From Peribolospora baueri (Eukaryota): a DNA stretch of 47,194 nt. The position numbers were made by a program, and so were the translations under genes. The DNA is taken from NCBI GenBank assembly GCA_029717555.1, contig JAMDHS010000125.1:1-47194 (forward strand), written 5' to 3'. The notes beneath the pieces were generated by a model that saw nothing but the letters and a program-made list of their open reading frames with translations, ran no database searches and was not told the DNA's origin. Below, in pieces: positions 5,416-44,100 of this stretch; position 1 is the stretch's first letter; every line of letters begins with the position of its first letter.

Positions 5416-8137
5416 TTACTGCGAGCGGGCGTTCTTGGCCAGCTGCTTGATCTTGACGATGATGGCTGAAAGGCGAGGGAGAGCATCGAATCCGTCAGGC
5501 GGGCGCGCTTCTTTTGACAAAGATAGAGGTCGAGGTGTGACCAGCCAGCGACTCACACTGCGGGTCGAGTCCTTGGTGGTAGACCTGCTCGCCGAGGCCA
5601 CCGCAGCCTGTTAGGATGGCAGAGCGTGTGAAGTGCGAACGAAAGGAGACAAAGCCGTGAGGCGAAAAAACGTCACCACCGTCCAAACGTGTTCGTTCGG
5701 TGACGAGCCAAAACCGCGCCTCAGCAAGCCGTCACCCACCCTCCCTGTTGGTCCCCATGTACCCGTACTTGGGCCTCAAGTCGCGCTGGAGGAGCCACGT
5801 GCCGAGCTTGGAACCGAGGCCGGTGCGTTGGTTGAGCGTCTCGACGACGAGGACGAAAGGAGATTGGCCGATCTTTTTGAGGGCCTGGGGGGGGAAGAAG
5901 AGATGGGAAGAAGCGGCATGAGAGACGACGGGCGGCAGGAAGGCGAGAGATGAGGAAAGGAAAGCATGCAAGGTGCGAGCGTTACTCTCGCCGCCTCACC
6001 TCTTCGTCGACGAGGTTGAGCGTGACCTTGTTGAGCAAGCCAACATCGTAGCCTTCCTTGCGAACGCGCTCGATGGCATCGAGGGAGCGGTACACGCTGT
6101 CTCCGAACGAGACCACCCATCCGTCCGTGCCGTTGCGCACCACCTCGTCCTTTCCGGGAACAAATTGGTAGTCTCCTTCGTACATCTTCGATCCGTCTTC
6201 CTTGAGGATCCAGGGAACCTTAGAACGAGTGGAGAAGACGAAGCGGAGGCCTTTGTCGAAGAAGACGCGGCGGATCACCGCCGTCATTTGGGCTGGATCA
6301 GCTGGGAAGTAGAGTGCCGTGGTGTGTCCGTCTTCGAGACCGTTGTCGGCGAACATGTTGTTGAGGCCGAAGTGGCACCTGTGACGCATGGGCGATCGAC
6401 AGCGAAAACCCAGGTCGGTCGGGAAGCCGAGGGAGCGTTCGGACGAGCCTCCAAACAAACGCTCTAAAGCAAGACCAGAAAATGTGGTTTCCACTCACGT
6501 GTTGTCGGCAATCTCGTCGATGCCAGCATGAGAAAAGTGGCAAAGGACGTTGACAAAGTTGAGACGGGCCATGGTGATCTCCGACACGCACATCTCGAGA
6601 AAGGCGGAAAAGGTGGAGAAGACGCCTGGGCGGGCGGTCGAAGAGAAAAAAAGAGGGTTGGCTGGGCTGAGCTGCCGCTCGCGTTTACCCCGTGCTGCCG
6701 TGTCCATGTCAGGCTTACCGAATTTGTCATGATCGAATCCAAAGCCAGCGGCGGCAGAGAAATTGCCACGCTCCATGACGCCGGACGAGACAAAGACCTC
6801 GGGATGCTTCTGGTGAATGACCTTGAGGCCGGTGGACCCTTCGAGGTCAGAGTCGATGACCATGACTTTGTCCTTGGCCTCCTGTTTGCCAAGCCCGTCG
6901 AGGACGGTAGAGACGGTCTCGCCAAAGACGACGCGGTTCGCGCCGACTTGCTTGGTGGACCCTTCGTAGAGGTATGGAAGCGAGGAGGGCTTGATGCTCT
7001 TGAGGATCTCGACGGCCTTGGTGTGGCCACGCTGCTCGAGGTACTTGATCGCCGTGTCGACGGGGATCACGTCGTGACCTTTGGGCGAACCTTCGAGGCC
7101 CTCGAGGCCGGGACACATGATGCGGTTGGAGATGACTGACAAGTCGCACGCACGCACGCATCGTAAGAAGAGCGGAGGTGTGAACAAGTGGAGGGGCGCT
7201 TTCCATCGAAAGCGCCCACGTCGGTCTCTCTCGCTAGAGGCGCGACTCACCAGCCGCGGGTCCCTGCGAAGAGACGCACTGGCTGATGGCGCCCCATAGG
7301 CTATCGATGTCTTCTCCATCGGCCTCGAACACCGTCAAGCCGTGTCCCTCGAGCGTTCGTTTGAGCTTGAACCCTTTGAGGTATTCGGACGGGTGACCGC
7401 TGCGGGAAAGCAAATCGAAAGCAAGGGAAAGAAATTGCATTCGTAGGTCAGACACGTAGATGATCGGTAGTGCGTGCGCGTGCGTGGGGTGCGGGGGCGG
7501 GGGGGGGGGGAAGCGGGGGAGAAACGGATACGGACGAGATGGTCACGTCGTTGTTGTCAATGAACAGCTTGACATTGAGCCCCTTGGCCACAGCGAGACG
7601 GGCCGCCTCGGCGTCATTGCCCTCCTGCTGACTGCCGTCCGAACCGAGCAAGAAGACAGCCTTGCCACGGTTAGCCATGGCGACGCCATTAACAAACGGC
7701 CACATGTGACCTAGCCTTCCCGAAGAGAATTTTACGCCGGGCGTTAGGCCGAGTTCTGGGTGGCCGGGAAGACGGGAATGGGCGGCGCGGTAGTTGAGCA
7801 GCTGCTCTGGTGGTAGATGGCCGTGGAGGGCCGAGAGGAGGTACTGCGTGGCGACGCGGTGTCCGGCCTCGTCAAAGAGGACGGGCACGTACTTGGAGGG
7901 CGATTTTGCCAAAAGGCCCATGAGAAGGGTGACTTCGGGCGCAGTGCCGTACGGCCCACCCGTATGGCCACTCAAGCCTCTGGCGGCGCCCGTGGCGGTG
8001 AAGGCGATGATGGCATCGCGAAAGACGCTGATGTTGGCGAGGATTGCCTTCTTCTGATCCTCGGCGAGCGGTCCTTGGGTCGGATCGAGCGGCACGGGCT
8101 TGTACTTGGAGAGGTCGATGGGGAATTGGGATGCCAT
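5416..8137 (-). CDS. Transketolase-family thiamine-diphosphate enzyme (divergent), ~639 aa; exons 8137-7536, 7399-7251, 7135-6719, 6625-6499, 6378-6000, 5884-5740, 5607-5557, 5465-5416
   Basis: ThDP-binding motif SDGSQQEG...DNN, plus SGHTGG, GHPE, SSGRLGH, DSDLEGSTG, GVMERGN and FSHAG. All seven introns are GT-AG and the exon total (1920 nt) is in frame. Confidence 0.9.
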
Positions 8138-8985
8138 GGTTCTGAAAAAGAGTTAAGGCGAAGCTCGTCTAGATGGACGAAAGGAAGGAAGGAGAAGGAA
8201 AGACGGCCGGGACGGTTTGGTTTGGCTCTCTTGTCTGATCACGATCGCCGGCGTCATGAGGTGATCGAGAGCGAAACGACTGTCGTCACCACGACGACGA
8301 ACGACGATCATCAGCACGGCTGGCCATCCACGATCACGTTTCCTTCTCTCGCAAACTCATCGACGTCCTTTCGGCGGGCGAAAGACGGTCGATCCAAGGT
8401 TTCTCTTGAGGCAACGACGTCATGAGAGGGAGGGTGCTGACGAGCTCCATCCGCCGGACGTTTTCTTTCTATACATATACAGGTAGATATATTTTCCGCC
8501 GCTTTCTGCGACGACTAGCGCCGGAAGATACGTCGAGCCGCTGGACCGTTCATCAAAGATTTCTGGACAAGGGTTACTTACCTATCTATCTATCAGACTC
8601 CTCGTCGTCTCGCTCTTTCACACTGACCCTCCGGTCCATTTCTCACCTGGCCTTGTCCCCAAGCGCATCTAGCGCCTCCTTCGCCGCTGACATACCATCT
8701 CATGCATGATCGATCCCCTCTTCTGGCGATCGCGGCCTGAGGGCCATCTCGGAAGAGGACGAGGATTGGTTCGCAAGGGCAGGATCGTGACGATAACGGT
8801 ACAAGATACAACCTGAGCTAGAGAGCGAGGGATGGTGGCACGATTAGGAGGGGGAGTGCAGTTGTAGACGAGATGACAGGAGGACCGATGGATTGTAGGC
8901 GTTGGGTTGGGGTGGCGACCAAGTCGTGAATGGATGGATGGGGTGACCGGTTCGTGGTGCCGTTGGCGGCGAAGAGGGGGACGCA

Positions 8986-9363
8986 TCACCATGAGTCGCC
9001 GTGGAGCCACTGTGGGCAGGAGTGAGACCGAAGGAAGCGAGGGACGACGGTCAGCGCCGACGACCAGGGGGCTCCGACGTGGGCTCCCTTGTCGAACCGA
9101 CACTTACCTCTGCCTTCTGAGCCTCGTTATCACGAGCCTGCATGAGCCCGTCGTGGGCCGTCTCGCCAGCGGGAGGGAGCTGCAGGAACGTTGGGATGGG
9201 GATGGGGATGGATGCGCATGGGACGAAGGGCATGAACGGCACCAGGTCAGTTTACGGCAGTGAGCGAGGCCTTGGAGGGCGGTGTGAGTGAACGCACAGG
9301 AGCAGCGACGGCAAAGCCGATGGCGAGGAGAGGGAGGAAGAAGAGGGAGAAGGAAAGCTTCAT
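8986..9363 (-). CDS. Small secreted peptide, 53 aa: MKLSFSLFFLPLLAIGFAVAAPLPPAGETAHDGLMQARDNEAQKAEWLHGDSW; exons 9363-9298, 9179-9108, 9009-8986
   Basis: ATG followed by a hydrophobic signal peptide ending AVAAP. Two phase-0 introns (GTGCGT..CTGAC..CAG and GTAAGT..GCTGAC..CAG), each with no AG between branch site and acceptor. TATA-like CATATA ~125 nt upstream. Confidence 0.72.
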
Positions 9364-9762
9364 GTCGAGTTTGGGCGTGGTGGGGAAGTTTTAGGATATG
9401 TGAGCGCTGGAAGAAGAGGCGAGCGAGGAGGAGAGCGCAGAAAGTAGGGGCCGGGGCAGGGAGCAAAGGGTTGACAGGGTGGCGGTATATGTAGGTGGGA
9501 GGGGGGCGAGGAACGGTAGGCGAGCTAGACTCGAAACCTGGTCAGGGCGGGGGTTGAGACAGCGGGGACAAAGATGAGGAGCCCCCCGGGACATGGCCAG
9601 GCGATGTCTGCGCATCAATGAGCGCGGAGGGATCAGTGAAGAGACAGAGCTGTGTCTGTCTCGTCTGGATGACGGAGTGACACAAAGAAACAGAAGAAAC
9701 AGAAAGATAGACAGACGCAACGCAACGGGCGGTGGTGCGACTTTTTTTCTTTTTTTTTTTTT

Positions 9763-9795
<33 letters not shown>

Positions 9796-10210
9796 TGTTG
9801 TCTTGTCTGGGCGCGCTCGACCTGGGCAGACGTGGCGCAACGCAACGCAACGCACTCCGTCCTCTCCGACCACCGCCTTTTGCCTTTGCCTCGTCCGACG
9901 GGGCGGCCGGGCCGGGCCAGGGCAGGGCTTGCTGTGCGACGCGAAGGGTTGCGCGCCGGCGAACCTGTGTATAACGCGGGACGATACGGAGATGGGAGAC
10001 GGAGACGATCGAGGGCCGACGGTGGGTAGTGAGTCGGTCGGTGCGCTGGCAAACACAGGGGAGCGAGGAGTGAGGGGCGGCCGATCGGATCGGACGGGAC
10101 CTGGCGTGGTGGTCCTTGCTGGGCTTGCCTCCTGACAGCGGCGCTTAGGACGGACGCCGGGATGGATATGGATGGATGGCCGGTAAGCGCAGCGCAGCGA
10201 CGGCGTGGCA

Positions 10211-10260
10211 CTCACTTCAGTTCACTTCACTTCACTTCACTTCACTTCACTTCACTTACT
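10211..10260. repeat. (TTCAC)n pentanucleotide microsatellite
   Basis: Visible tandem TTCAC units. Confidence 0.9.
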
Positions 10261-10898
10261 CCCCTCTCTGTCGTCGGTCGCGAGCGGAAGGAAGAGAAGG
10301 ACGCCGATGGAATGGACCGATGGACTGGCTGGACAAGACGAGACGAGATGACTCGAGACGAGATAAGATGGCGGGCTGCCGAACGCGTCCACCGCGCCGC
10401 CACGGGATCCGATCCGACCCGACCTCGTCCGGCAGACAGACGACGATGGACGGACAACCAGCGAGGCGCGAGGCGAGGCGTAGCGCAGCACGACGACGAC
10501 AACAACAACAACATCAACGAGACGAGGTTCGCCATCGCGCCGCCCTTCAGTAACGAAGACGGACGCGTGACAAGTCGTCGTCCCTCTTCTCCCGCAGACC
10601 GAACGAAGCCAACCGGTCTGGTCTGTCTGTCTGTCTGTCTCTTCACCCGTCCTCCCGTCGACGCGGACGCTGCTGGCGTGCCCCGGGATGGGGGACGGGA
10701 GGGCGATGCGATGCGATGTAATGCCATCCATCCCGCTGGGTTCGGTGGCTTGTGTTTTTCAAGCCTCGGTTCGTGCTGTTGTCGCTCACACGCGCCTCTC
10801 TTCACCGCCCACCGTCGTCCAATCAAGTGTTGCATTGCGAAACGTATGTGGACGAAAGAGGATGCAGATAGACAAATAGATAGATAGATGGCCGATCA

Positions 10899-11907
10899 TC
10901 ATGATGCCTTGTTCGAGTCGACGACGCTCTCCTCTTCTACCGTCGTGAACCGCGACTCGTCCCCCGCCTTGTTGGCGCTTGTCTTTTTCGACGACGCTGG
11001 AGCGCCACCACCGAAGAGATCTTTGCCCAGCTCCTCGACGCATCTCACGACCCGACGGCAGACCATCGACCATGCCGCACAGGAAACAGACCCTGGAGAC
11101 GAGCGAGCGAGCGAGGGACACGAGTCGCAGAGAAGACGAACGCCGTCAGTCACTTTTTCCGCCCTCCGTCCCGTGCGTTTCGTGCAATACGATAGGAAAA
11201 CCCACCGGAGGGCGCCCATGGCCAGCTGAGCCACCACGCGAGCGGGCCAAACCAGCCCGGGGGAAGCCAGAAGACGGGGGTGCGACGGTAATAGGTGCCG
11301 ATGCCGTAGGAGAGGCCGGAGGTGAGGAGCCAGAGGAAGGACTTGAACTTGATCGAGAACGAGGTGCGAAGCGTGGCCAGATCTCCGTCTGTGGATGGCG
11401 TGGCGGCGAGCAAAAAAAGGGGGGAAATTGTCGACGAGAAGAGGGCGGTTGAGCGACACTTGACCGGGTGCCCGCCCGCCAGCCATCCATCCATTCGTCA
11501 CTCACTCAGCTGCTCCAGCTCGCTGAGACCTTTATCAACCTGCCGCCTAAGCTTGGCCCACTTTGCGAACTGGTCCTGGCTCGACGTACGCATGAGCTCC
11601 TGCTTCTTCGCCAGGATGTCCGCCTTGAGCGCACGCTGCCTCCGGGTCTTGGAGGAGTGAAAGCAAGAGAGGTAGGCGGAGTACGTCTGGGGAACATAAA
11701 TCACATCGCAGGGGGAGAGGACGACGGACGGAGAGAGGGTGTGAGCAAGAGTGCGCCCCGTGCCGTGAGCGACGGGCGAGCCGAACAACGACAACGACAA
11801 CGACGACGACGACGATCGCTCACCACGTTGAGCAGCCCCTCGCTGCCCAGCCACCCGACAAGCTCGCCGAGCAAGACGAGGCCGAGGATGAGCAAGGCGA
11901 GGCTCAT
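10899..11907 (-). CDS. GET1: Guided entry of tail-anchored proteins factor 1 (GET1/WRB family), ~213 aa; exons 11907-11824, 11686-11506, 11388-11206, 11092-10899
   Basis: N-terminal TM segment; coiled coil with [48 protein letters not shown] motif. GT-AG introns keep the frame (642 nt). Confidence 0.93.
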
Positions 11908-11913
11908 CTTGAT

Positions 11914-12037
11914 GGACTGACTGACTGACTGACTGACTGACTGACTGACTGGCTGACTGGCTGACTGACTGGACTGGACTGGACTGGACTGGACTGGACT
12001 GGACTGGACTGGACTGGACTGGGCTGGGCTGGACTGG
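11914..12037. repeat. Compound (GACT)n-(GGACT)n microsatellite immediately 5' of the GET1 start codon
   Basis: Visible tandem GACT units followed by GGACT units. Confidence 0.9.
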
Positions 12038-12356
12038 CAAGGCGAGTCTATCTAGACAAAGTCTGTCAATCTCGTCTCGTCGTTCCTTCCCAACCTGCGC
12101 TTCCCCGACCAACCGGAGACCGAGCCTTCCTTCTCTTTCTCTGATCTGTTCCGTCCGCTGATCGGTCGGTCTGTCTGTCAGCCAGCGAGCGTCGACGTAT
12201 GCACATGGACGCGTCGCTAGTAACGAATGTACATGCGGACGGTTCAGTAGTATACGTTATACGTGTTCCCCCGGTACGTTCCCCTCCACTCTCCAGAGGT
12301 GATGACAACTCCTCCTGTCATTTTACGTTATTATCGTGGTGTAGCAGTCCTCCTGC

Positions 12357-12428
12357 GTGGTCATCGATTAGTGGTGAGATCGTTTCGTTGTGGCCGAAGA
12401 GACCTGGGTTCGATTCCCAGTGACCACA
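12357..12428 (+). tRNA. trnH-GUG: tRNA-His (anticodon GUG), intronless
   Basis: Acceptor stem GTGGTCA/TGACCAC, D-loop TAGTGG, anticodon loop TTGTGGC, T-arm CTGGGTTCGATTCCCAG. A T-run (Pol III terminator) starts at 12430. Confidence 0.95.
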
Positions 12429-13046
12429 CTTTTTTGCTTTTGTCGCGCCCCTTCCCCTATTTTTTATCTCTTTTATATAATACCCAAGGGTAAGTAATGA
12501 TCAATTCATCCCCCGAGCAAGCCATCTCATCGCTCTTAGGATTCCTCTCTGCGAGGTTACGCCGAGACCGGTGAATAACAACGGACGGAGGGACGGAGGG
12601 AGGGATGGGTCGCGATCGCAATAGGAATATATTCCAATCGTAAGCCAAAAAAAACTTGGGCGAACCGCCGTGCGAACCGAATGGACGAACGAGCGGCACG
12701 GCTGGTGGCCAGACGGGACACTGGGAGAGATAGAGAGAAGGAAGGGGGGGGGAAGTATGTATGTAAACGTGACCATGGGACAACGGGAAAAAAAAGGGAC
12801 AAAACAAGGAAAGGGGAAAGGAGGCGACAAAGGTCCTAAGACAGACAGACAGACAGACAGATTCCGGAGTTCGAAGGAGGCTATCGGTAGGCGTCAGGCG
12901 TCAGGCGGGCGGGCACTAGCAAAGGGGAAAAAGAGAGTGGACAGGGTAGCGAGCGGGAAAGGACGCGGAGGGAGAGAAAGGAGGAAGGGGGGGGAACTAA
13001 ACAAAAAAGAAAAAGTGTCCGCGTTCTTGTTCGAACCGATTCTGAA

Positions 13047-16000
13047 TCAGAACGGACTCGGCGCACCGGGCGGCTTTGGCGCCTGAGAAAGGTGAGAAGC
13101 GAAAAGAAATGTTTGGTGAGCAAGCCGACGGGACAGAGCGCGTCACGTCATGTCGGTGGGAGGAGGACTCGGACTCACCGCCGCTCCCGGTGGAAGCCTG
13201 CTCGCGCCTGACGAGGTGCTGCCATGTCCAAGTGTGCTGGGGGCGCCACCGCCACCGGTGTTGAACATGCCAGAGTGTCCGGCCTCGGAGCTGGACGGGG
13301 AGACGGGGGACTGGATGGACACGCCACCGCGGCTGGACCGCCTCGACTGGCGCTTGTTCCGCACCACCGTCCGGGCGCCTGGCATGGGCCCGTCGTCGGT
13401 CAGCGAGACGCCTCGGGCGAGCTGCGGGCCGTCTCGAGCGGGTCGCGCCTGGCTTGAGCTAACGAGGTGGTGAGAGCTGCTGGAAGACGCCGAGACAAGC
13501 GCCGGCGAACCGACCAAGATCTCCGGTTCGGCGCTGAATGCCTCGGCGTAGCTGAAAGGGAAAGAGAAAAGAAGAAAAGGGGCGAGGTGAGTGAGATTGG
13601 GATGCCCGAAAGGTGGTTGCGTCGACGCCGCTCGCTCGCTCGCTCACCTCGCATGCTGATCGGGCGGGCTCAGCTGAGGGTAGCTGTTCTCGGACGACAC
13701 GTGACCGTGACGAAGGTGGACGGAAGAGGACGCGGCGCCCAAGCCGTCGGACGTCCCCTCATCGCCGTCGTGCATGATCGGTTGCCTCTCGTGGGCGAAC
13801 GAGGCCCGCGCGTCGCTAGGATACTCGTACCTCGCCGAAGCAGCGACAGGGGGTGTGGCACTGTGGTCGCGCGACAAGGAGGCGGCGCTCGAGTTGGCCG
13901 TCATGCCCGTGCGCGAGTTGGGCGACAGGTCGCGCGAGCCCCCCGGCGGCGACGTCGGCGTATTCCGGGCTTGAGAAGCGTTGGGCGCGAGAGGAGCGGG
14001 AAGCTCGAGCAACGGCACCGAGTCGATACGGGACCTCGACGCGTGGCGGCCGCCGCCGCTGTGGTCGTCGTCGTAACCGGCAGGCGGAGCGGCGGCGGCG
14101 GCGAGTCCGCCTCGGGTGCCGAACTGGTCGGACGGGTTGGAGTGGTAAGTCTCCGAGGAGGAGACCATGCTGAACCGCGTGCTCTCGGCGCGGCGCGGGC
14201 TCTCGGAGCGGTGGACGACGTCGTAGGTCGAGTCGCGCGAGACCGTACCGGACTTCCACCTGCGCTCACGCTCAAACTCGGCCCATCGCTTCATGACGAT
14301 GTGACTCGAGTCAAACTCGCCCTCCTTGCCGTCGTGCGCGGCACCATCGTCGCCTTCGATCTTACGCGTCTGACCCCAGCTAAAGTCGTCAAAGTGCCAG
14401 AAGGCGTAGGTGGGGAGGACAAAGTTCTGAAGGGATAGAGAAGGGAGGTTAGCAACAGACGGAAAAATGACTGGCGGAGGGCACCGGACGGCTCACCCAG
14501 ATGGGAAGAGAAAGGAGGTAGATGAACATCCATCCGACGTAAGCGATCCTGCGCGACGTGATGACGATCAGCAATCCTGGCAGGCCGAGGATGATGGCGA
14601 GGAGGATGAGAGGGATGACGGGCGTGACGGCGGTGGGGATGATGGCGAGAATGATGAGGTAGAGGGTGAACGAGATGGCGGCGGGAAGGACGAGCGTGCC
14701 GGCGAGCTCCATGCCGACGACGAACTGCATCGAGAAGCAGAACGTGCCGCAGAGGTCGCGCACGAAGAGGAGCTCGGCGAGGTTGTGCACCGTCGAGTTG
14801 ATCCATCGTCGGCGTTGAGAGAGGAGGACGCGGAACGTGTCCGGCACGACCGTCTTGCACACCGCGCCCGGCACGAAAACCATCTTGCGCTTGGGGAACG
14901 TCTTGAGCATGAGCGTCGTCAAGTATCGGTCCTCACCGAGCAGGAGCAGGTTTTTCTTGTGCAGCGTATCCACGACGTTTTCGGAGTAGTGTTCGACGAT
15001 ATCTGGGTTCGCCAAAATGGGCACCCAATAGCCAAGCGCGCCTTTAGGAGCCTTGATACGGTACGCGCTAAAGCAGCCGGGCAAACAGGTGACACCTCCG
15101 AAGCAGGCCTCAAAGGCTTTGGTCATGTGGTGCGAGGTGTAGTACTCGAAGACTACGAGGGGTAGGTTGATGGAGGTGGGTGAACGGAAGAATAGATGTG
15201 AGCGGGTCACGCGCAAGAAAAGAAAAGAAAAGAAAGAGAAAGACAAGGAAAAAAGGTAAAAAAAGGTAAAAGAGGAAAAGAAAAAAGAGAAAAAGAGAAA
15301 AAGAAAGAAGAAAAAGAAAAGAAAAGAAAAGAAAGAGAAAGAGAAAGACAAGGAAAAAAGGTAAAAAAAGGTAAAAGAGAAAAAGGAAAAAGGACAAAAA
15401 GAGAAAAAGAGAAAGAGAAAGAAGAAAAAGAAAAGAAAAGAAAAAGAAAAAGATCCGAAAACTCACCCTGAATCATAGTAACCCAAGTCTCCGCCTTATT
15501 CGCAATCTTCGTCTCTCCACACAACCCCATAATCTCCGGGTCCTGCACCATCGCCGACGTCATCCTACTCAACGAATCTGGAAAGATCTTCGTATCCGCG
15601 TCCACCATGAGCATCACCTCGTAAACGTCTGGTGATACGCCCGTGACACGCCATATCGAATTGAAGAATTCGTATTCGAATGTCGTCATGCGTTCGTCAA
15701 ACATGACTTTTTGCAAGAAGGCCATGATCAGCACTTGTGAGTCTCGTTTGCCGCGGTTGCCTGGCTTGGCGTCGTGCGCTTCTAGAGGGTTGCCGCATTT
15801 GGCAACGAGGACCATGGGAACGCGTTGCTGTTTGCTCGGCTCGACGGTATCGTCGTCATAGTCGTAGAAGCCGGCATACACCTTGGCCATGTTGTGTCGC
15901 TTGTGCCCGTCGGCGATCGCCACGTAGCTGTGGCCCTCCACCTCCTCAGCAGGCGTGATGAGGCCCTTCATCATGCTCAAACAAATATCCGGGGTGCTCA

Positions 16001-19867: not shown

Positions 19868-22800
19868 TCACGACGCGCTCGAGGACGACGCCGTGCCGTC
19901 CAACGAAGCGAACACGTCGGCCCTGGCAGCGAGAAAAAGGAGGAGGGTCAGCCAGCGCTCCTCGTCTCCTTCTCACCGCCGCGAGCCACTCCCCACTCAC
20001 CAATCCACCATGTCCAACGGCCACTCGGCCAGGAACGGCCATCCCTTCCCGCTCTCATCGCCCGTCTCCATATCCATGTCCATATTCATGTCCATATTCA
20101 TGTCCATATTCATATCCATCCCCATATCCATATTCATATCCATCCACCCGCCGCCACCGCCGAACCAAGGCACCGCCGCTGACCCGGCTCGCGTCCCCTC
20201 CCTCTCCTCTTCCCTCTGTCGAATCGTCAAATAGAATCGAATAGAATAGAATCTTATCGCATCGCACCGAACAAACAGGATAACATAGCTCACCTCTCTG
20301 CCCCGTTTCCGTTTCCCCTTTCCACCACCGTCCGGCACCAGCGCGAGACGCGTCACCTCGGCGAGCGATCGGAGTACGTCGGCGTTTAGACCGGCTAGTT
20401 GCCATCTGAAGGGCGGTCGAGGTAACGAGTACGGAAGGTACAAGTACGAGGGTACAAGTACGATGGTACGAACGTACGAGTACGCAAGGAGGTCAGCCTA
20501 CGAACGAACGACGAACGAACAAACAACGAAGACGACTCACGTCCGCTCGAAGGACGACAGGATGCCCAGGCACTCGTCCACACGCCCCAGATCCCTCTCC
20601 ACGTCCTCCACCACCACCTCCTCCTCCTCCGATCTCCCACCGCCACGGCGCCGCGTCCACACGTCGATCAGCAGCACGCATCCCGCCACAAAGCCCGCGA
20701 TCACGCTCTCCAGCGGCCGGCCCCTCAACTCCTCTCCGCCCCGGCCGAGCGTCGAGACGATCTTTCGCGCAGACTCGGCGCACGTTGCCAGAGCCATCGT
20801 CGCCGCCGCCGTCCTTCCTTCTTCTTCTCCCTTCATCCCCTTCTTCTTTCGAGAAGTAAGGAATCGCCGGCGGTGGATGTAGATCTATCGACGAAGGGCG
20901 AACCAAGTCGAGCCGAGCACATGAGAACAAACAAAGAAAAAAAGTTCAGAGAAAGGACAAAAAAATATAGCCCGTCACTCACGTTGGTGACGTGATACTG
21001 CGCGTGCACGAGGCAAGCTTCGACCGACGTCTCCGTATCCCACACCTCGCCATCGTAATCGTACCTCAGCTCCGCCGGCAGCGCCGTCTCCCATGCCTTG
21101 AGCTCGCCGACGACGTCCGCCTCCGTCGCCGCCGCCGACGATCCAGAGTAAAGCGACGTCAGCGTCCGACTCGTAATCCGGAGCAGCCTGAGCCGCGCGT
21201 TGAACGACGCCATTCGGACCGACCGCCCTTTCGGCTCGAGACCCGCTGCCACCGACTCCAGGCTTTCGTCGTCCAACTCTAGCGGCAGGTCCACGTCGAA
21301 GCTATCGGGCCGTATGCAAGAGGGCGCAAATGAGCGCAAATGAGTAAACTTTGTCTTCTCCTTCTTCTTCTTCACCGACTTACTCGTCTTCTTGGATACA
21401 CATCGGCCGGCCCGTCATCGCGCTCATCGTCCTATCCAACAAATACGCCGTCCAAAACACCCTCTTCCGCATCTCGTACTCCACCACCTCCTCCCTCTCC
21501 ATCTTCTTCGCCGCCTTGCGGTGCATCCCCGCGTCCAACGCAAGCCGCATCGTCGTCCCCACCAGCACCCACGCCGACGTCGGTGTTAGCGGCGTTCCGA
21601 GCAGGAACATGATCGACATCGTGATCGCTTGCAGACGCGTAAGCGTCGCCGTCGCGTACACTGGGTGCTGGATCCTCTTCATCTCGTGCCAATATCGGAT
21701 GCCCGCACTGTGCCGGTACCTCGCCTCCGCACCGACGCATTCCGGGTACGTCAGCACGCGCCGATCGTCGACCACCTTGGACGCCACCGCGAATACGCCA
21801 AACGCGAGCGCCACCCAAGCCCGGTCCCGTCTGCTCGCCGGGTCGTGCCACTGCCGCATAAACGTCGGTCGATGGAGGAGTGGCGCAAAAGCGTTCCATT
21901 TGTCAAAGTAGGCGTCGATTAAAGTCGCTGCCAGATCCGGTTCTGGCCACGCTAACGGCTCGAATAGAGTCGCGTCCAAATCGTCTAAGAGCCCCGGAGC
22001 CACTCGAAAAAACTCGGGCCGAAGGGCGAAGAAGGGTCGTTGTGCGCGCGTCTTCGTTGGCGGCGGCGGCGGCGGAGGCGCAGGCGACGACGCCGCCGCC
22101 TCCGCCTCCGCCGTCGGGTGGCCCTGCGAAGAAAGCCGTTCGACCTCCTTGATGAGCTGGAACGTGCTCGACTTGCCCACAAAGTAGCGCTGCTCGACCC
22201 TCCTATCCTCCGGAGCGTCGTGTCTGTCGTCGTCGATCACCCGAAGCTTCTCTAGCACCCCGCCAAGGTATACAAACTCTTCGTCGTCGCTCTCCCCGTC
22301 GTCTCCCTCGCCGGCGTCATCCCTCGTCGCCGCCCCATGCAACTCAGTATTGAAGCGAAGCGCGGATCTTGAAGCTACGCCTTCGACGCTCGACCGGGCC
22401 GAGAGAAGACGCTCCAATTCCTCGACACGGCGCTCTAAGCCTTGGACGTACCTGAGGAGACGAAGAAAAAACGGCGACCGTTCAGTGAACTAAGCACGTG
22501 GTTCCACCGCCGTCACTACGCGCTCGAGATACTGACTCTTTTGAAGGAGGCCATTTTCCCGACACCGGAGGGAAATCGCAATGGCGGTTCGTCGATGCAC
22601 TCGTGGCCGGGTCGGAAGGAGGATGCGCCGTCAGCTGCGAGGCCGGATGCGGCAAGGCAGGGCAATGCTCACCAGTAACTACATGCGTTCTTGTCCGGCT
22701 GGACGCCGTCACAGCGAATCTTCTTGGTGTGGCAGACCTTTGCGAGAGAACGAAGGAGCGAACGGTGTCACGCAGCCAGCCAGCCAGCCAGCCAGCCGAT

Positions 22801-29930: not shown

Positions 29931-32900
29931 TCAGGAATTCCATTCCCAGTCCGACTCTTCCTCCTCCTCTTCAGACCCGACCGACCCCTCCCCTTCTCCA
30001 GGCACCCGACCCAACTCCTCGTCCCTTTCCGCGAACGTCCTTTCTTTTCCCTCATCATTGTTCTCCGCCTGAACGAGCCTCTCTCGAGAAGCCAAATGGC
30101 TCGACGAGGTCCCCGAGAAGGCACGGAGACTGCTGTTGGAGGTGGTCGGAGGATCGTAGGAGGCAGCGTGAGCGCGCCATACCTCGGACGGAAGCAGCGG
30201 TCTGATGCTGGTAGCTTCGGCTGGATTGGAGCTCGCAGAAGAGGGAACGGAGGCGGCGGCCGTGGCAGCGGCATCGTAAGGATCAAGACGATCGTGACCA
30301 ACGATAGGTGGCCACGGTGGAGATGGCGAAACAGCATATCCGTCCATGCCGATGGTCCAGTTGTTGGACCCGGCCGAAGCGCCGGCGGGACGGACTTCGT
30401 ACCCCTCCGAGCCTCTCCGGATGCGCACCTGAGAGTCCGGCGCCGGGCGCCACCAGTCGTCTGCGTCCACATCTCGCTGGCTTTCCTCATCGTCTATGAA
30501 GATGTTCTCATCGGTCCAACCCCACTCCCCCCGTTCCCTTCCCTCTCTCCGTTGTTGTTCTGCGTGGGCATACAAGGGCACACACCCGTCGGCTCCCGCT
30601 AGCGTGGCGCTGTTCTCCGACGACGCGTGCGACATGTCGTCATCCGTTGAGGAACGGGAGAAGCGCCGAGCGCGTCTCTCCTCCAAAGAATCGGACGAAT
30701 CCTCCTCGTCGTTCTCTCCCTGTGGTCGGTAGTCGGGGTGATAAGGCGGGAGATCGGACCTCCTTCCGGGCTTGCGCCTCGGTGGGTCGCTCTCTTCTCC
30801 GCTTGCGCCGTCTGCCTGCTCATCCCCGCGGGTTCCTCTTCTCCTCCTCCTCGCCATCCCTCCCTCATTCGGGTCGAACATGGAAGAGCTCGTCATCTTA
30901 GCCTGACCCCGAGCCTGGCGTTTCTCCGCCTGAAGACTGGCGTTCGAAGCCTTCAGACGCGGGTTAACGCCTTCTCCACCGTACGTCCAAGGGGAAGAGG
31001 GCAGCTGGAGCTTGTGCCTTCGTCGTTGGCCGCCTCCACCGCTCGCGGAAGGGTCGTAACGATATCGAGTGGTGGGATCGCGCGGCGGCCAGGTGTACTG
31101 GATGAAACGATCTGCAAAGAGAGAACACGCGTCGATGAGGCGAGAAGAGGGAAGAGACGAGAGGACGGAGAATAGAAGAGGACAAAAAGGCAGGGACGGG
31201 ACAAAGAATGATCATGTGAGCAACAGCACTGAAGAGTGGTAATGAGCAGAGTCGAAAGAGGGGAAAAGAGAAGAGGAGGGCCAGGAGTGAGCTCGCCCCT
31301 GAAATGGAAAAGGAGGCGAAGCAGGCGTGTGTGCGAAAAAATAAGACATTGCATGTCCTCACCTTTCACAGGACACGAGCCGGGCCTTTCACGTCGAGGC
31401 GGGCTTTCAAGGATGCACCCTTGCCACTCCCACAAGCAACAGAACTCCATTCCAATGGTGGCCCGCACCTACGCCATCTCCCCGACCTTCTCCACCTCCT
31501 CCCTCCAGCTGCGCTCCCTGCTTGCCGCCAATCCCGCCATCTCCGCCCACGCCGCCGAGGCCGAAGCTGAGGCGGATGCCCCACCCGCACCGTCGAAACC
31601 ATTGCCAGGGTGCAGTAAATTCGCCGTGGAGGACGAAGCTTCCGCGGCGGGCGGTTGGCCCCCATCAGGATGGTAGGGAGGATAGGGATGGGCAAATGGC
31701 TGCGGGTGTGCTAGGTAGGGATATCCCCCGGAGATGGGCTTGGACTTCAAAGGGATATACCTTCCCGGGTGCTTGGACGCACGGGCTTTGGAGCGATGGG
31801 AGCGAGCGGAACGGGAAGAGCGAATGGAGGAAGGAGAATGGGATGCAGGACGTTCCCACTCACCGTTGGAGTCGTTCACCGGGTAGGAAAGGCCATCCCC
31901 AGGTGTTGGGGCGGGTAATGGCCAGAGGATGGGTTTGGGTCCAAAGATAGAGACGAGGTTGCGATAAAGACCAAGGTGATACGGAAATTTTACCTAAGAC
32001 GGGTGGGGGTGTAAGGACAGAAGAAGGACGAGAGCGCAGGTGAGGAGGCAGATTATGAGGCAAAATGATCGCGCTAAAAACAGCGCCGACCCTTGCACCA
32101 TCCAATCGGCTCACCTCCCTGATCCTCCCTCTCCTGACGAGCGTGGCTACCTTGTCCTTCTCCCAACTTTCGATGGTCGTGGTATTGGTGGCGAGGAGGT
32201 AGAACTGGTAGATGCTAAAGATGCCCACGGTGAGAAGAGTGGGGATGCAGCCGACGTAGTTGAAGACGATCAGCAGCATCTCGCGCGTTGAAACGTCGCG
32301 CTGACAAGACGTAGAGAGTGAGAAATGGGGTAGGTAAGCCACTGCAAGAGGAAGCTGCCGGGCAGTAACTGAAGGGGCAAGACAGAAATTGCGCTTTTGC
32401 AGTTGGACACCTACCCAATACGGCGAAGGATTTGCGGCGTCGATGACCTACATTTCGAAAAAAAAAAAAATCGAATCCCTCACGTCAATATCTCCCCGTC
32501 CGGTTTGCCGTGCATAAATTCATCCCAAGAGATCGTGAAGCGTCCGCCGACTCACTCGACTGGTAACCATGCAAAACTGATAAACGCAAGCGATATCGAC
32601 GCAGATGAGGAAGCGCACGAAGTGGGCGTAGTTGTGGTGGCCCACGCAGTTATTGACCCAGGGGCAGTGGTGGTCCATCCTCAGGATACATCTGCGAGAG
32701 GGATGCAGGCAACGAGACTGGATGTCAAACATGTTCTTCACTTCGCTTTCCCTGATCTGCCGAGACGCGCTCACCTCTTGCAAGACTTGCAGTGATGCGC
32801 CCTCGGAGGTTTATACTCGTCGCACATCTTGCAGTATCTCGGCACGCCCGTCAACCTCTTCACCTCGGTACCCTCCGCCCACCTTCTGGACCCACGCGCA

Positions 32901-41131: not shown

Positions 41132-44100
41132 TCACTCGTCCCCGAGACGCACGAGCATGGGAAGGGCGATCGAGAGCATGAGAGCGGCCAAGAAGGCGAT
41201 CACCCAGGGAGACCGCAAGACAGACAGCGTCGACCCTTCGTCCGCCCACACAGGTCGTGGCAACCCAGCGCCCTTGCCACTTTTCCCTCCTTCTCCTCCT
41301 TTGCCATCCGCGTCCTCGACCCAGAGGTCAACGACGTGTACCCGATGAGGGTCATTATCCGCGTGCACGACGTACAGCGTTTGTTTCTGAGCGACGGACG
41401 GACGGACGGATAGATGGACAGACGGACGGACGGATCAGTTCCCAGTATGACCGGTGGTGTGACAGGACAGAAGACCACCTGCTCACCTTGAGGTCTAAGC
41501 GCCACGTCCCGTCGCTGACCTCCACTTTGACCTTCTTGTTCGCGTACACCAACCTCGGCACAAAGATCTCCGTCTCCCTCGCCCGTATCTCCTCACCGCC
41601 GGGAAGAGAGAGCGGGCCGACGACGTCGGCGTCGTAGTAGATGGGCCCTCGCCGAGCGCCGCCGCCCATGGAAGACGGGGACGAGCCCTGAGTAGAGACG
41701 ACCGGGTTGACGTATCGCACTTGGAAGGAGAACGTTCGACGAGAAAACGCCGTCGACACGGGGATGCCCGCTACTTTGGCCGCATACGGACGCTGTGCGT
41801 ACCGTTCGGCGAGAGGAGACCGACGACGACGACGACACCGCACCTCGTCAGCTCATTGGCCGCTGTCGACGATGAAAGTGAAACCGAGACGAATGGACGC
41901 TAGCTCACCACCATGCTCGCCAACGTCCTACACCCCGCATACAGAGCCTTGTCCTCGTCGTCCTCCTGAGCCACAGGATTCGTCCTATCCTTGCAGCCGG
42001 GCGAGTAGAAAGAAAAGTTCTCCGCGTTCCTGCGCCACCGCATCCCCAAGCGACGTCCGCGGTCAGTCCAGTGCTTTTTTTTCCTTTTCGAGCCCAAGCC
42101 GGACCGGACATTCCGAAATCAAAAAGACCAGAGGGGAGACGCTCACCATCCATCGCCCCATTCGTCCTCGTTCTCAGCACAGTAGTTCCACAGTGTGAAG
42201 CCGACGAGGTTGCGCTCGAGTGCGCTGATGATGGCGTCCATCAGCACGTTCTGCGCTCCGTAGTCGCCCGTCCGGAACGCCTTGCACGCGTTGATGTCGA
42301 AGGGGATGCCCGTCTCGCCGATGATAATGGGCATCGTGTCGCCGCCGGCCGTACGGACGGATTGGGCGGCGTAAGCGCGAGCGATGAGCGTGCGCAGTTG
42401 GAGGAAGTAGCTGGAGGGAAGACAACGACGAAACGATTAATGAGCCTCTCAAGGACGCCTCCAAACCGAACACGCCGGCCCGACCTCCAAGCTCAGCTGA
42501 TCAAGCTCACTTCCTCTTCACGCCCTTCTCGCCCCAATACAGAGCGTTTAAAATGAACATGCCCCTCGAAAGTCCCTGCACGTTGACGCTCAGTCCGGTA
42601 AACGCCTTGTTGAAGAGCACGTTGAGGTCATAGAAGTGCGAGGCAAGCACCATGTTCTCCGGCGGTGAGGGGAAGGTGGGACAGAACTAGACAATTGAGC
42701 AAAGCGCCCGAGATGAGACAAGAGGGAAGACATATCAGAGAATCTGAAAACGTCGGGAAAAAGGATAAAAAAACAGACACACCTCGTTGGGAATAGGTTC
42801 AAAAAAGACCAGCATTTCGGGTCGACCGTTTCGCATCCTGCGCATACGCGGACGGGGATCAGCCCGGTCTTGCCCTCAGACCACACGCGGCCCGGACAAA
42901 TCGCCATGACGTGCTGACTCACCTCTCAGCGAAGCGCCTGACGAACGGCCAATAAAAGTCAGCGTACCATTCCACTCGCTTCCCCGTCCTTGGGTCCTTC
43001 TCGAAGAAGCTCTCCCTTAACACCTCGGGCCTCGCCTTCTCCTCATCCCACTCCCACGCCCCGTGCCTCCTCCACACACACCCGCCTCGCCCGCCCTTCC
43101 ACGCATTCCGCCCCTTCGGGTCCACGACGACGTGGTGGGAGATGCGCGTCGGCACGGGCCACGATTTGACGTAGTAGGGCACCTTTTGAGCGTACCCGCT
43201 TCCGAGCGCGACGGATTGGAGGAGGTTAGGATAGGTGCCGATATGAAGATCCGTGTTAAAGTTCCACGAGTGCCAGGAGTGGAGGGAGATATAGCCGCGG
43301 TGCTGTGGAAAGAAACGAAAGAAAAATCAGCCATGGGGTAGATAGGCGCATCGTTTCTCCGAGTGACCGAGCTCTCACCGGCTCATTCATGGCCTGCATA
43401 TGTGAGGTGCACGCGCAGACGACGAGATGACGTGTGCCAGCGCATAGACAAACAAAGGTTAGGATGTTTTTTGCGGCCGATCCGGAAGCTCGTGAGAGGG
43501 CGCGACTCGCACCTCGTACCCCAAGACAGCCTCGCACCCGTCCAGCCGATCAGCGAGGTAGCCGTACGCATTGATGTAAGCGTTCTGGAGGAAGTCCTGG
43601 ATGGACACTTCCTCCATCTCGCCCGTCGATGTCTTGCGGGACACAGTATCCTTCCACGCAAAGGTCGAGCCTGCCCAGAAGAGCGTCGCCATCGTCCCTG
43701 CCGCGAGCTGGAGGGAAAGGACGACAAGACCGACGAGGACAAAAGACGGAACAAGATGCCCAAGAAAGGTGAGCGCGCCGCTCGAGATCATGACACCGCA
43801 CTAGTCCCAACGTCGAAACGAATTATCAAGCTACCAGACACCGCGTCCACGAACCTTCTGATACCCGCTCGGCCACACAAAAGGGCCGGGATCGACTTCC
43901 GGGTTAAGGTTCTGGGAATGAAGATACGCTGCGCCAGTGTGTTTGAAAGCTTCGATATCAAAGCCGGCTACTTCCAAGGTCTTTTCGGTTGTAGGAAGAA
44001 GGCAAGGCAAGGCAAGGCAAGGGGCGCGTGACGAGCGCGGTGAGTGCTGTTGCTTCCAGGGACGGGAACGCTTCTACAAGGTGCCCGAACTGGATGTCCG

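Follow-up and report, generated by a model that had tools for sequence, protein, structure and literature searches.

A very probable, unannotated three-exon gene for a 53-residue protein with a predicted secretion signal in Peribolospora baueri

The window analysed here is the whole stretch of 47,194 nucleotides at positions 1 to 47,194 of contig JAMDHS010000125.1 of Peribolospora baueri (assembly GCA_029717555.1). The candidate locus (8986-9363, minus strand) is flanked by two genes on the same strand. The upstream neighbour is GET1 (10899..11907, minus strand; Pfam CHD5 and homologues), which encodes 213 aa in four exons separated by introns of 137, 117 and 113 nt. Its model (ATG 11907, stop 10899) is the splice combination that best matches two homologues, and it serves as our local standard for intron size and codon usage. 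The downstream neighbour is a transketolase-like gene (5985..8137, minus strand; Pfam Transketolase_N, _pyr and _C) whose ATG at 8137 lies 849 nt below the stop codon of the candidate. These Pfam assignments (CHD5; Transketolase_N/_pyr/_C) support the neighbours that an earlier, sequence-only reading of this DNA had named, GET1 and transketolase. Other Pfam-identified genes in the window are a NUDIX gene, a CHS4-domain chitin synthase, a fungal transcription factor, Hsp104/ClpB, a carnitine acyltransferase and an arginase. Three long open frames have no Pfam match at E <= 0.001 (1489-2995 and 29934-31211, minus strand; 41882-44028, plus strand) and may be lineage-specific genes.

Between GET1 and the chitin synthase gene lies a tRNA-His gene (anticodon GTG; 12357-12429, plus strand), found by both ARAGORN and Rfam (61.7 bits). 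It is the only Rfam match above threshold in positions 8000-12500, so the introns of the candidate are not snoRNA hosts. A (TGGAC)n microsatellite of 27.6 copies (11913-12037) begins six bases upstream of the GET1 ATG. The chitin synthase gene has a first intron of 314 nt (15153-15466, minus strand) that consists almost wholly of an AG/CT-rich tandem array (105-nt unit repeated 2.2 times, 15215-15453), and a second intron of 70 nt (14427-14496). Upstream of the candidate, 1535 nt separate the GET1 stop at 10899 from the candidate ATG at 9363, in agreement with the approximately 1.5 kb of non-coding DNA described earlier. This spacer holds a (CTTT)n tract (9741-9794, 13.8 copies) and a (TCACT)n tract (10212-10257, 9.2 copies), the former of which mimics plus-strand coding potential (poly-Phe) in codon-usage scans.

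The candidate gene itself is read from the minus strand. Exon 1 (9298..9363) consists of the ATG (9363-9361) and a further 21 codons, 22 codons in all, and is followed by intron 1 (9180..9297, 118 nt), which has a GTGCGT donor and a CTGAC motif 67 nt before a CAG acceptor that is the first AG downstream. Exon 2 (9108..9179) contributes 24 codons and with them most of the predicted mature acidic peptide. Intron 2 (9010..9107, 98 nt) has a GTAAGT donor and a CTGAC motif 41 nt before its CAG acceptor, again the first AG downstream. Exon 3 (8986..9009) adds seven codons, the last of which encodes Trp, and closes with TGA (8988-8986). When joined by script, the spliced exons form a reading frame of 162 nt that encodes 53 aa with no internal stop. 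The start codon, both introns and the stop codon had been placed at these positions by the sequence-only reading, and all proved correct on direct check. The three exons occupy three separate stop-to-stop frames (47, 66 and 46 codons), which explains why the gene is missing from a simple list of ORFs, as had been pointed out before: no single ORF spans it. We conclude that this locus very probably holds an unannotated gene of three exons whose 53-residue product carries a predicted secretion signal.

Features that may delimit a transcript are recognizable on both sides. A putative core promoter and 5' leader (9364..9492, minus strand) comprise a TATA-like CATATAC (about 9492-9485) and a C/T-rich tract that continues to the ATG; the TATA-like element lies about 125 nt upstream of ATG 9363, with no ATG in between. 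An in-frame TAA (9393-9391) is found upstream of the start codon, and AG is absent between the two. At the other end, we considered whether splicing might bypass the TGA to give a longer protein. At the stop codon a single GT is available, that of GTGATG (8989), which departs from the GTRNGT pattern, and the DNA downstream of the TGA contains neither a strict intron-like segment (defined below) nor a strong coding stretch (best 12.5 bits, 8337-8450); because the donor misfits and no strong coding stretch follows, we see no route to such a protein. The weak coding-like stretch at 8337-8450 (minus strand, 38 codons from a Met, 12.5 bits) may be due to chance, a uORF or another small gene. A gene on the opposite strand was likewise rejected, as none of the top 12 coding-like stretches is a plus-strand stretch that overlaps 8986-9363.

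Codon usage offers a test of the gene model that is independent of how the candidate was found. A codon table was compiled from the Pfam-supported ORFs of the window (4943 codons), with the base composition of the nearby non-coding flanks as background; the negatives were stop-free chunks of clean flanking DNA (8200-8985 and 9364-10898, both strands). The candidate has a log-likelihood of +23.3 bits in frame versus -10.3 and -22.5 bits when read in the other frames. Among 1634 stop-free flank chunks of 53 codons, not one matches the in-frame score, the maximum of 20.8 bits being reached by the CTTT microsatellite read as poly-Phe. Coding-type codon usage is confined to the exons. Exon 1 alone scores +13.5 bits in frame, a value equalled or beaten by 38 of 2868 non-coding chunks. 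For exon 2 alone the in-frame score is +9.0 bits (reached by 85 of 2756 non-coding chunks), with -4.4 and -16.9 bits in its other frames; exon 3, at +0.7 bits, is too short to score and contributes almost no coding signal. No frame of intron 1 scores above zero (-14.5, -11.3 and -13.9 bits), intron 2 scores -9.5 bits in the frame entered from exon 2, and five of the six intron frames are negative overall. Per codon, the candidate reaches 0.440 bits versus 0.303 bits for GET1, which is outside the training set. The GC contents of its first, second and third codon positions (0.70/0.45/0.74) compare with 0.60/0.47/0.735 in the training genes. Since a preference for C at the third position drives the score (GC3 0.74 vs GC2 0.45), it reflects more than C/T richness.

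The introns were judged against a strict definition (GTRNGT donor, CTRAY 8-70 nt before the first YAG, length 45-200 nt). Segments of this kind number 32 in the real window versus 13.3 +/- 4.0 in shuffled windows, so the definition is meaningful in this genome, and both candidate introns are among the 32. For comparison, we used five homology-guided reference introns of GET1 and the chitin synthase gene (137, 117, 113, 314 and 70 nt). The donor sequences read GTGAGC, GTGAGT, GTGGGT, GTGAGT and GTGAGC. Four of the introns have a branch-like motif, at 55, 53, 46 and 22 nt upstream of the acceptor, and one has no strict motif. The lengths of the candidate introns (118 and 98 nt) and the 41-nt branch distance of intron 2 fall within the reference range; the 67-nt distance in intron 1 is larger than in any of the five. 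This branch distance aside, the codon usage and intron signals of the candidate are like those of the verified neighbouring genes.

The rival that survives best is that the locus is not a gene at all: a chance ORF in a C/T-rich promoter, leader or non-coding RNA, in which the exons merely result from a choice among many GT..AG pairs. The candidate was picked by eye from raw sequence, the codons of exon 1 come from a C/T-rich tract of a type also seen in fungal promoters and leaders, and the minus strand is C-rich throughout this region (plus-strand GC skew +0.26 over 9001-10000). We therefore counted how often a model of this kind arises, by enumerating, on both strands of the window, all ATG-started models that encode 35-120 aa and contain no more than two strict introns. 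The 480 small-ORF models obtained include three with two strict introns and four with a signal-peptide-like N-terminus, and the candidate is the sole model in the window that combines the two. Three of the four signal-peptide-like models share ATG 9363, being the proposed, one-intron and unspliced variants; retention of intron 2 gives a 64-aa product with a lower score (19.0 vs 24.2 when spliced). The fourth, with a codon score of -20.4, is put down to chance; it lies on the plus strand (21340-21612) and overlaps, in antisense, the region of the fungal transcription factor gene.

A signal-peptide-like two-intron model turned up in only one of 100 block-wise dinucleotide shuffles of the whole window (mean 0.01), a figure that is optimistic because the splice and signal-peptide criteria were set after the candidate was seen. 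When all signal-peptide-like ORFs are counted, a shuffled window yields 1.39 on average versus two independent loci observed, so the signal peptide alone is not significant, which is a point in favour of chance. Against it stand the in-frame codon score, unmatched among the non-coding chunks, the strongly negative scores of the other two frames and of both introns when read on from the exon before them, the rarity of the combined model in shuffles, and the third-position preference for C that lies behind the codon score beyond mere C/T richness.

Chance could also claim the empty homologue searches. The queries were a 66-aa read-through ORF that holds the 24 residues of exon 2 (word search and phmmer) and those 24 residues by themselves (ESM Atlas). 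The word-index search returned no candidate among proteins of 36-116 aa, phmmer found no match at E <= 0.001 among 1.84 billion representatives, and the ESM Atlas gave no usable match. Within the window, tblastn and blastn of the locus recovered only the locus itself (next best tblastn E = 0.082), and the seven-residue C-terminal string was found in none of the papers searched. The homologue searches say little, however, and do not count as evidence against conservation, because only 24 exon-2 residues embedded in intron read-through were queried and because the databases lack a close relative even for GET1 and the chitin synthase: a 63-aa exon of GET1, run as a control, has a best match of 73% (68% for the best named species), and the best match of the chitin synthase is 59% (Testicularia). 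In a FastTree phylogeny of 37 chitin synthases, which gives a rough placement, the protein of the window belongs neither to the Ustilaginomycotina clade nor to the one that joins Pucciniomycotina and Agaricomycotina. The two Tremellomycetes included (the class of Cryptococcus) are not grouped with it, and it lies outside the clade that holds Naganishia and Kwoniella. Because the tree is midpoint-rooted and built from a single gene, we read it only as that of a basidiomycete with no close relative among the matches. We read the candidate as a probable lineage-specific (orphan) gene.

Taken together, these data make a chance ORF rather unlikely, and we hold with good confidence that the candidate locus is a real protein-coding gene. 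What its product may be was examined from the translated exons. The N-terminus resembles a signal peptide (codons 1-20, 9363-9304, minus strand), with a basic residue at position 2 (n-region MK), a single hydrophobic segment (residues 3-21) with a Pro within the core, and Gly at -5. For a cut after residue 20 (AVA-AP), the -3/-1 rule is satisfied by small residues in both positions. This rule and our heuristic signal-peptide test agree with the earlier proposal of a signal peptide that carries the AVA-AP motif. There is no second hydrophobic segment, as mean hydropathy is negative in every nine-residue window from residue 21 onwards. Residues 21-53 form a stretch of 33 residues with a pI of 4.57 and a net charge of about -4, in which no Cys, dibasic site or N-glycosylation sequon occurs. 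Basic residues in the whole product are confined to K2, R38 and K44, and the C-terminus is not of the HDEL/KDEL type that would point to ER retention.

We propose that the 53-residue product enters the secretory pathway by means of its N-terminal signal peptide, that signal peptidase would cut most likely after residue 20, and that the remaining 33 residues, Cys-free, strongly acidic and ending in Trp, would be released as a small soluble secreted peptide. Transcription, splicing, the cleavage site and secretion are all things that we infer from the DNA. The new N-terminus would start with three X-Pro/X-Ala dipeptides. Dipeptidyl aminopeptidases of the Ste13 type remove such dipeptides, and we speculate that the peptide may be trimmed further in this way. 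A Kex2-type cut after 'QAR', which the sequence-only reading had invoked, is not borne out: the product contains no dibasic site, and the KEX2 sites by which fungal Kex2-processed precursors are defined in PMC6339444 are KR, RR and KK.

In another rival reading the gene is real but the signal is not cleaved. Its product would then be a tiny protein that crosses the membrane once, in the secretory pathway or at the cell surface, held by a signal anchor and with a 31-residue acidic tail in the lumen or outside the cell. With residues 3-21, the hydrophobic stretch is long for the core of a signal peptide and long enough to make such an anchor possible, and positive charge is found on its N-terminal side only, the segment that follows being acidic. 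A helix-breaking Gly, small residues at -3 and -1 and a Pro in the core are, however, typical of cleaved signal peptides, and the candidate has all of them (Gly at -5, AVA-AP). We regard an uncleaved anchor as unlikely, a little more so than a chance ORF. On balance, we favour the reading that the gene yields a cleaved, secreted peptide of 33 residues, and put it forward as the probable outcome.

A secreted peptide of this kind can be compared with several known classes. With a signal peptide (by the heuristic), no further membrane segment and no ER-retention tail, the product corresponds to the operational definition of a small secreted protein. It shares with the small secreted proteins of fungi (SSPs, effector-like orphans) its small size, signal peptide and lack of both a domain and detectable homologues; it differs in being far smaller than most and in having no Cys, and the class is uninformative on function. 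KEX2-processed repeat proteins (KEPs) and the precursors of ascomycete alpha-type pheromones resemble the candidate in the succession of signal peptide, pro-like region and short C-terminal peptide, as well as in the possible X-Pro/X-Ala dipeptides of Ste13 type. The definition of KEPs in PMC6339444 calls for a signal peptide and for internal repeats with KEX2 sites (KR, RR, KK) between them. The candidate, in contrast, has no repeats (a single copy in the 33-residue mature part) and no dibasic site.

Like the lipopeptide pheromone precursors of the mfa/phb type, the candidate is a very short precursor easily missed by gene finders, and it too comes from a basidiomycete. These lipopeptide pheromone precursors of basidiomycetes are not known to have a signal peptide. 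They are processed and farnesylated at a C-terminal CAAX motif, as set out in PMC3248468, and the sexual pheromones of basidiomycetes are of the a-type only, according to PMC6339444. The candidate has a predicted signal peptide and neither Cys nor CAAX; the count of Cys in its 53 residues is zero, and the earlier description of a product with no Cys, no CAAX box and a C-terminal Trp therefore stands. Regulation by the mating-type system was also considered and rejected. A Ustilago-type pheromone response element, with up to one mismatch allowed, is not enriched in the window (11 copies versus 8.8 expected), and none of the copies lies in 8986-10898. The most fitting class for the candidate is that of the orphan small secreted peptides.

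A more specific proposal, which goes back to the sequence-only reading, is that the product is the precursor of a diffusible autocrine or quorum-sensing peptide that works like Qsp1 of Cryptococcus neoformans. It would be exported as a pro-form, cleaved extracellularly to a short Trp-terminated peptide and then sensed or re-imported. Qsp1, a quorum-sensing peptide of 11 residues, leaves the cell as a pro-peptide, is matured there by Pqp1 and is taken up through Opt1 (PMC7537855, PMC6571750). Its precursor, like the candidate, is very small and enters the secretory pathway, both come from basidiomycetes, and the active part of Qsp1 lies at the C-terminal end and finishes in Trp, the residue with which the candidate, itself devoid of Cys, also ends. 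The likeness in sequence goes no further: of the 11 C-terminal residues of the candidate, the final Trp alone coincides with Qsp1, a comparison made by eye since a length of 11 residues allows no alignment statistic. The resemblance had been described as architectural and not as demonstrated homology, and we find nothing beyond a small secreted precursor and a terminal Trp to add to that judgement.

The small precursor and its N-terminal secretion signal (by the heuristic) thus match Qsp1; sequence similarity and a Tremellomycete host do not, the host standing apart from the two Tremellomycetes on the chitin synthase tree. Neither a dibasic nor any other recognizable processing site is present, and most small secreted proteins of fungi are not known signals. 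What defines the action of Qsp1 is its maturation protease, Pqp1, together with its importer, Opt1 (PMC7537855, PMC6571750). We consider a Qsp1-like precursor improbable. The related conjecture that a deep-branching and barely sampled basidiomycete uses a Trp-terminated autocrine or cell-density signal that arose independently of Qsp1 and would mature without Kex2, through signal peptidase and stepwise dipeptidyl or extracellular proteolysis, is, in our estimation, a long shot.

Least probable, to the point where we give it hardly any weight, is that the small ORF is a uORF within the spliced 5' leader of the transketolase-like gene, part of one long transcript and at most a translational regulator: it lies on the same strand, 849 nt upstream of the transketolase-like ATG, and no terminator is recognizable from the sequence, but 15 further minus-strand ATGs and no strict intron-like segment intervene between 8985 and 8138, which favours a separate transcript, and coding-type codon bias and a signal peptide are unexpected in a regulatory uORF.

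We return to the reading that we prefer, a small gene whose product is probably a secreted peptide. Very short genes with several exons are routinely missed by fungal gene finders, and the few that have been characterized in fungi include the pheromones and the only known fungal peptide quorum signal. The present locus shows that sequence statistics alone can make a gene of 53 codons and two introns credible. If expression and secretion are confirmed, the gene would be a concrete candidate for peptide-mediated communication outside Cryptococcus; otherwise, it would be another orphan small secreted protein. Should the improbable signalling reading hold true, peptide quorum sensing would be a recurrent invention in fungi.
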